This document shows positions 59,139-59,348 of a DNA stretch of 64,000 bases, one piece after another; position 1 is the first letter of the stretch, and the number at the start of each line of letters is the position of its first letter. The notes under the pieces are model-generated. The model saw only the letters and a list, made by a program, of their open reading frames with translations, was not told the origin of the DNA and made no database searches. Origin of the DNA: Escherichia coli. Its GTDB lineage: Bacteria; Pseudomonadota; Gammaproteobacteria; Enterobacterales; Enterobacteriaceae. The translations under genes were made by a program, and so were the position numbers. The DNA lies in NCBI RefSeq assembly GCF_024223415.1, contig NZ_CP100500.1; one strand, written 5' to 3'.

Positions 59139-59348
59139 ATGGCTATTGCCGCAAGTTACACCATGCATCTCTATTGTGATTGTCGCCAGTGTACAAATGG
59201 TAAATATCAAACGCCAGACTTCGGTGAATATATCGGTACGTCATGGACTGGCTGTGCAAAAGAGGCGCGTAAGGATGGCTGGCGAATAAGCAAAGACAAA
59301 ACTCGTGCTTTTGCGCCCGGGCATAAAGTTTTGAGGATTAACAAATGA
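59139..59348 (+). CDS. Small zinc-ribbon-like protein (CxCxxC...C)
   Basis: 69 aa, RBS AAAGGAG; MHLYCDCRQCTNGKYQ...GCAKEARKDGW. Confidence 0.6.
   Translation: MAIAASYTMHLYCDCRQCTNGKYQTPDFGEYIGTSWTGCAKEARKDGWRISKDKTRAFAPGHKVLRINK

Follow-up and report, generated by a model that had tools for sequence, protein, structure and literature searches.

The 69-codon open reading frame described here is best explained as an early accessory gene of a P2-like prophage of the Xuanwuvirus/P88 type, whose product would be a small zinc-stapled domain, acting in trans, perhaps on a polyanion, and spreading from phage to phage as a module; to this reading as a whole we would assign a probability of roughly 0.55. 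The gene lies in a 64,000-nucleotide stretch of Escherichia coli DNA (assembly GCF_024223415.1, contig NZ_CP100500.1), hereafter the window, behind the replication gene A and before a probable terminator. In the mechanism that we propose, one Zn(II) would be held by Cys13, Cys15, Cys18 and His62, and the metal would tie the C-terminal tail to the loop after strand 1, stabilising a domain of about 60 residues. The domain would show a conserved basic face (K41, R44, K45, R49, K52, K54 and a K/R-rich tail) opposite an acidic N-terminal half. The mini-protein would be produced at an early stage of infection or induction and would act in trans on something that many hosts share; the likeliest target is a polyanion such as DNA or RNA, with no specificity for a site carried by the phage.

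The gene and its operon

The coordinates of the gene and its surroundings are collected in Table 1, and the translation in the ORF listing is MAIAASYTMHLYCDCRQCTNGKYQTPDFGEYIGTSWTGCAKEARKDGWRISKDKTRAFAPGHKVLRINK. Read from the DNA, the codons for Cys13 (59175-59177), Cys15 (59181-59183) and Cys18 (59190-59192) reproduce exactly the C-x-C-x2-C arrangement, followed by Cys39, that the earlier note had described for this ORF; its description of the protein as basic is likewise borne out by the computed composition (12 K/R against 6 D/E, net charge +6, pI 9.39). The ribosome-binding site is strong, and the gene is a link in a chain of tightly packed co-directional ORFs. The first two junctions of the upstream chain, counted from the replication gene, are 4-nt overlaps; the last of the three small ORFs stops one base ahead of the ATG of the 69-aa gene, whose own stop overlaps the ATG of the 133-aa ORF as ATGA, an arrangement of translational coupling. 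A hairpin with a perfectly complementary 9-bp stem and a T-rich tail (TTTATTT within ATTTCAA) probably serves as the intrinsic terminator that ends this early operon; it was absent from the list returned by a terminator scan of the + strand, and the call is our own reading. Further on, the portal and large terminase genes lie on the opposite strand. Over this cos-portal side the closest phage genomes are those of P88 and other Xuanwuvirus members (Peduoviridae), and hence the gene is placed immediately ahead of cos, within an early operon that belongs to a P2-like prophage.

Table 1. Features of the 69-aa gene and its surroundings (positions in the window)
Feature	Position	Strand	Remarks
P2 gpA-type replication protein, 836 aa	55682-58192	+	upstream of the 69-aa gene
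Three small ORFs between replication gene A and the 69-aa gene	58189-58620, 58617-58811, 58823-59137	+	
Minimal mosaic module, Shine-Dalgarno to just past the stop	59126..59364	+	90-100% identity with other carriers
Shine-Dalgarno AAGGAG	59128..59133	+	5 nt 5′ of the ATG; sequence reading
CDS of the 69-aa protein, PHROG 926 member	59139..59348	+	ATG start; RefSeq WP_000951718.1, hypothetical protein
Codons of Cys13-Asp14-Cys15-Arg16-Gln17-Cys18	59175..59192	+	N-terminal knuckle; three putative zinc ligands
Codon of Cys39	59253..59255	+	in predicted helix; putative non-ligand
Codon of His62	59322..59324	+	putative fourth zinc ligand, in A59-P60-G61-H62
Chimeric 133-aa ORF	59345..59746	+	downstream of the 69-aa gene; PGAP: truncated pseudogene, first 135 nt only
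Hairpin AAACGCCCT/AGGGCGTTT with T-rich tail	59754..59783	+	inverted repeat, 9 bp, 100% complementary; probable terminator
Three TGCACAA copies, 10-bp phase (59784, 59794, 59804)	59784..59810	+	
Portal gene	60807-61862	opposite to the 69-aa gene	
Large terminase gene	61862-63613	opposite to the 69-aa gene	

Three of the neighbouring ORFs have features of their own. The 64-aa product of 58617-58811, which begins at a GTG overlapping the preceding stop, has four cysteines and an N-terminus that resembles a signal peptide (SRILLFLLFFAPFAQSA), features that may mark a small prophage protein destined for secretion or the periplasm. In the chimeric 133-aa ORF, the N-terminus has matches to phrog_60, phrog_3323 and phrog_660, modules that also occur in Ea22/DUF551-type proteins and in the 104-aa ORF upstream; the C-terminus matches phrog_13916, labelled "DNA ligase." Between cos and the portal gene stands an ORF at 60027-60740 (237 aa from a TTG, or about 167 aa from the ATG at 60237; phrog_5091), with no PADLOC match, that looks like a cargo gene in a variable slot: in most related contigs the slot contains only a short ORF, about 43 codons long, and the portal lies some +454 from the TGCACAA array; an insertion of roughly 600 bp, present in the window and in a minority of contigs, places the portal at about +1026 to +1078.

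Family, prevalence and selection

The ORF is a real and very common prophage gene, far beyond a chance reading frame, and its product is an already catalogued protein and a typical member of PHROG 926. The match to the phrog_926 HMM (E 6.6e-37, 126.7 bits) runs from residue 1 to residue 69 on profile positions 1-69 of 69, and all 135 aligned relatives match the same profile. The motifs of the family, Y-C-D near the N-terminus, A-R-x-x-G-W and P-x-[HC], are all present in the window protein, and their core positions are nearly fixed among 125 sequences (A43 in 122, G47 and W48 in 124 each, P60 in 115, and H or C at 62 in 123). Searching 1.84 billion proteins with a profile gave 399 cluster representatives at E≤1e-3, nearly all of them stand-alone proteins of 60-90 aa. 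The identical protein is recorded on at least 1000 contigs, always as "hypothetical protein" or "prophage protein," and the same CDS is annotated by PGAP in E. coli ECCNB12-2, whose DNA is 100% identical here. Among complete E. coli genomes, 665 of 5,426 (about 12%) are carriers, with up to six copies in one genome and with 177 of 809 places on plasmids; the P1-like phages D6, RCS47 and PH444 carry the gene as well. Compared with the window allele, 31 alleles taken from 79 related viral contigs have a mean pS of 0.187 and a mean pN of 0.024, and the resulting pN/pS of 0.13 means that the reading frame is under purifying selection.

Scans of the protein and its neighbours against Pfam, NCBIfam and PADLOC gave nothing above threshold, and a Pfam scan of all 135 relatives matched no family, TraR/DksA fingers included. 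A literature search for phrog_926 or WP_000951718 found no paper naming either, and the 69-aa ORF is not covered in a review that models the exo-xis proteins. The gene is often missed by annotators, since the homologous ORF of Stx2-converting phage 86 (4013-4219) is unannotated in the RefSeq record, which leaves a gap at this place between gp46 and gp45, and many Ackermannviridae records have no annotated feature beneath the match. One genome holds a tandem fusion of two copies of the gene (P0048, 134 aa, from an NCBI contig), in which the first copy, lacking its APGHK tail, runs directly into a complete second copy, a structure that suggests the module was duplicated in tandem.

The gene as a unit of exchange

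In a comparison of 80 gene-bearing contigs, with flanks of up to 4 kb on each side, similarity to the window begins at 59126, 13 nt before the ATG, in 59, and ends at 59348-59364 in 38, with longer classes ending at about 59485 or 59550. Because these boundaries are the boundaries of the gene, the unit of exchange is the gene itself. On the evidence of the alignments, the 69-aa gene is a self-contained module, reaching from its Shine-Dalgarno sequence to its stop, that moves among P2-like, Stx-lambdoid, P1-like and lytic phages; the carriers of the module include Stx-converting lambdoid phages, P1-like phage-plasmids and other prophages. An ea22-like gene immediately precedes the homologue of Stx2 phage 86, in the early-left exo-xis region, and genes for a 151-aa hypothetical protein and a DUF551 protein come next; this slot is the one that ea8.5 has in lambda. 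The homologue in the P1-like phage D6 is orf102, that in the T1-like phage Rogue1 is gene 0068, and that in Salmonella phage Vi01 is Vi01_032, the last gene of an early block. Seven metagenomic contexts show long co-directional runs of small ORFs near assorted genes of DNA and RNA metabolism.

A constant neighbour was sought in the lambdoid, P1-like, Ackermannviridae and T1-like phages and in the seven metagenomic contexts, and none was found. In 68 of the 80 close E. coli relatives the gene directly downstream has the N-terminus MTTITKERLL and a variable C-terminus, a pairing that was not seen in distant relatives. A dCMP deaminase gene was considered as a partner: it lies two genes upstream of the homologue in Vi01 (L126 3067-4216), and directly upstream, overlapping the homologue, in an unrelated metagenomic phage (L128 3333-3978). 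The adjacency does not recur in six further metagenomic contexts, and we treat it as a coincidental placement among genes of nucleotide metabolism.

The probable target

No non-coding DNA moves with the gene, and the phage genomes that carry it are unrelated. Both facts speak against control of a site on the phage and in favour of a target that the host provides. As to the nature of that target, the distribution of charge in the family is suggestive. The median net charge of the relatives is -3 over residues 1-35 and +5 from residue 36 to the end; a basic residue is found at position 41 in 76%, at 44 in 89% and at each of 45, 49, 52 and 54 in 55-58%; and many relatives have K/R-rich tails. DNA or RNA, bound without site specificity, would be the most likely target on this pattern, an assignment that we make tentatively and at somewhat less than even odds.

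Somewhat more doubtful, and still a reading to be taken seriously, is that the zinc-stapled mini-protein binds or inhibits some conserved protein of the host and has no nucleic-acid binding at all, serving for instance in host takeover, as a modulator of cell division or transcription, or as an anti-defence factor. The gene lies in accessory early regions, the Stx exo-xis region among them, and other small exo-xis proteins have been reported or proposed to act on host or phage proteins. A bare gene that moves between unrelated phages, and a small product with no known DNA-binding fold, would suit a protein partner, as would the fact that about 24% of the relatives are not basic. However, the conserved basic positions and the K/R-rich tails fit a polyanion at least equally well, and the PADLOC models gave no match at E≤0.01 for the 69-aa protein or its five neighbours, a result to be read with the scope of that library, which consists of defence and not anti-defence proteins. 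Domain fusions bear on the choice as well and are rare: a C-terminal HTH_17 DNA-binding domain (29.4 bits, cut-off 27), which is in line with a nucleic-acid target, and an N-terminal DUF7683 (proteins P0174 and P0279), with no recognisable extra domain in the other longer relatives that were scanned. One fusion of each kind is too sparse, and hence we assign no function from them.

The probable zinc site

The nature of the site was read from an alignment in which the window protein was set beside 124 diverse representatives, whose identity to it is mostly 25-55%. Cys13 is invariant (125/125). At position 62, 79 sequences have H and 44 have C; at position 18, 98 have C and 6 have H, and relatives with neither residue at 18 have a His a few residues downstream. 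Cys15 is present in 66 of the 125 and alternates with a cysteine at position 59: C15 alone is found in 61 sequences, C59 alone in 59, both in 5 and neither in 0 (Fisher p 4e-30, uncorrected for phylogeny). In the relatives, the counterpart of A59-P60-G61-H62 is C-P-x-C or C-P-x-H, and about half possess a genuine C-P-x-C second knuckle. In an unbiased MIp ranking (mutual information with APC correction) of every column pair, 15-61 comes second, 15-59 third and 15-62 fifth, again uncorrected for phylogeny. Counting C13 and at least three more Cys or His residues, split between the loop (14-27) and the tail (58-63), 123 of the 125 sequences have the set, and the two exceptions have a His two residues later; the four conserved Cys/His ligands of a structural Zn(Cys/His)4 protein are therefore in place. 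The exchange of C15 for C59, together with the interchange of H and C at 62, points to a tetrahedral zinc site in which one ligand has moved between knuckles, and from this swap pattern the ligands in the window protein would be C13, C15, C18 and H62.

The earlier note had seen a site made of the three N-terminal cysteines and a distal fourth. Its knuckle stands, and its fourth ligand does not: Cys39 is a cysteine in 72 of the 125 relatives and is A, T, V or I in the remaining 53, for which reason we regard it as a non-ligand, and it is replaced in 37 of the 66 relatives that share the CxC form of the window protein. His62 takes its place on the covariation in the same 125 sequences. We conclude that the 69-aa protein is very probably a zinc domain. 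It is improbable that the cysteines serve without zinc, as disulfides, as an iron centre or through purely structural conservation. In other proteins a CxCxxC motif can bind Fe or Cu, which is a point in favour of a site of that kind. Against it, the protein has no signal peptide, so that it would be expected in the cytoplasm, where disulfides are disfavoured; moreover, the interchange at 62 and the C15/C59 swap preserve exactly four Cys/His ligands, which is the signature of a tetrahedral structural zinc and not of a disulfide pair.

Predicted fold and comparison with known phage zinc proteins

The AF2 model of the 69-aa protein, which contains no metal and was built on a 135-sequence alignment, has a mean pLDDT of 83.2 and a pTM of 0.65, with the five models within 1.5 pLDDT units of one another. 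The predicted fold is a small beta-beta-alpha-beta-beta domain: residues 7-13 and 28-33 form strands, residues 36-45 form a helix, and two short strands lie near 49-50 and 57-58. C18 belongs to a helix of one turn at 16-19. Confidence is lower, at a pLDDT of about 65, over residues 61-69, and a model from a shallower alignment has the same secondary-structure layout. A Foldseek search of the PDB found no convincing neighbour (best E 0.8). In BFVD the matches are to uncharacterised phage proteins only, of which two are clear members of the PHROG 926 family, and the weaker ones (E 0.03-1) include proteins of Microbacterium, Gordonia, Mycobacterium and Burkholderia phages. Profile matching to PDB sequences raised only short motif matches due to chance, namely the fibronectin type II repeats of MMP-2/MMP-9 (E 0.0055 over the whole chain, with each stretch non-significant) and helix 1 of the plant ZF-HD homeodomain (E 0.012); both were rejected because they are too short and incompatible with the predicted fold.

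The zinc ribbon that had been proposed for this protein does not fit the model. A classical ribbon has two beta-hairpin knuckles, each contributing two ligands, and a three-stranded sheet with no intervening helix domain, and the predicted fold departs from that plan, although the two are alike in drawing their ligands from two distant segments, an N-terminal and a C-terminal knuckle. The same note had judged the protein to be unlike Ogr/Delta, and rightly, as neither a Pfam match at E≤1 nor a relation by hhalign was obtained. P2 Ogr and P4 Delta (PF04606) are, like the 69-aa protein, zinc proteins of the P2 family of about 70 aa. However, the Ogr spacing is CX2C...CX4C (CX2C-X22-CX4C) rather than C-x-C-x2-C, Ogr activates late genes from a position beside att, whereas the 69-aa gene belongs to an early operon next to cos, and the hhalign probability of a relation to P2 Ogr is 0.13%.

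Two small proteins of the lambda exo-xis region also invite comparison. Ea8.5 is a hybrid of homeodomain and zinc finger (PDB 2M7A), and Orf73 has a TraR/DksA-like C4 finger; these and the 69-aa protein are all small, with zinc known or inferred, and encoded by early accessory genes. They differ in ligand pattern and predicted fold, and there is no homology. The hhalign probability of a relation to lambda Ea8.5 is 0.55%, PDB sequences searched with a profile yielded no Ea8.5 homologue and no TraR, and the zf-dskA_traR model of Pfam matches neither the 69-aa protein nor any of the 135 relatives. Orf73/TraR is reported or proposed to act on RNA polymerase, and candidate partners from yeast two-hybrid screening are given for Ea8.5 (PMC8614690; PMC9239242).

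The TGCACAA array and the cos region

Downstream of the operon is an array of three TGCACAA copies. This array, which the earlier note had mentioned, is real, and its copies stand in a 10-bp phase; the heptamer occurs 7 times in the whole window, against 16.7 expected by chance, and the array accounts for 3 of the 7. The same note suggested that the 69-aa protein could be the regulator that recognises this array. The inheritance of the two elements contradicts such a pairing. The exact array is found on at least 120 contigs in an IMG/VR scan, and among the array contigs listed only 2 of the 96 with at least 1.5 kb to the left of the array encode the 69-aa protein. Conversely, the array is present in only 3 of the 80 contigs that carry the gene at ≥93% identity, and all 3 have the exact protein allele of the window.

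What does accompany the array is the portal gene. A portal homologue is found in 80 of the 86 listed array contigs with at least 1.6 kb to the right, its near end lying mostly at +380 to +505 from the array, or at about +900 to +1080 where there is a cargo gene, and this among listed contigs whose portal identity falls as low as 44%. In a consensus of the 117 listed array contigs, the sequence is unconserved up to the base before the array and then conserved for about 200 bp in the direction of the portal. This block (window 59784-59930) is conserved in at least 117 P2-like viral contigs, with the portal gene next. The linear GenBank record of phage P88_4B11 ends 19 bp past the array and restarts at the equivalent of window 59830; its last genes are of the partition type, and its last 1.5 kb holds no PHROG 926 gene. 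P2 itself has three copies of a TGCAT core in about 10-bp phase, roughly 115-140 bp left of cosR, with a fourth about 45 bp from the end.

From the conservation edge, the array is the left edge of a conserved cos-portal block in phages of the P88 type, and together the portal linkage, that edge, the ends of P88_4B11 and the P2 array indicate that it is most likely a cos-proximal packaging or terminase-recognition element. A possible parallel is offered by the R sites of lambda cosB, which are bound by the small terminase subunit (Shinder and Gold 1988, as referenced in PMC9611059). Both are short phased repeats beside cos, conserved with the packaging genes. That the 69-aa protein is instead a site-specific regulator, with the three TGCACAA copies about 450 bp downstream as its operator, draws on the closeness of the array to the gene in the window, the basic character of the protein and the reality of the phased repeat, and we consider it most improbable in view of the rare co-inheritance, the near-fixed distance to the portal, the conservation that begins exactly at the array and runs portal-ward, the array of P88_4B11 with no such gene in its last 1.5 kb, the analogous P2 array next to cosR, and the homologues in lytic phages of other families that have no such cos block.

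Implications

Taken by itself the finding is a minor one, as the 69-aa protein is one of many small prophage proteins catalogued without a function. What is useful is, first, a testable assignment of the zinc site of PHROG 926 (C13, C15, C18 and H62, not C39), together with the ligand-swap pattern; and, second, the separation of the TGCACAA array from the 69-aa gene and its reassignment to the cos/packaging module of P88-type phages. The interest that remains lies in a predicted fold with no neighbour among solved structures and in a family that is very widespread, Shiga-toxin phages included. The Stx-converting phages carry the gene in the exo-xis region, which influences the lysis-lysogeny decision, and for this reason the function of the protein there would be relevant to the biology of Shiga-toxin phages.
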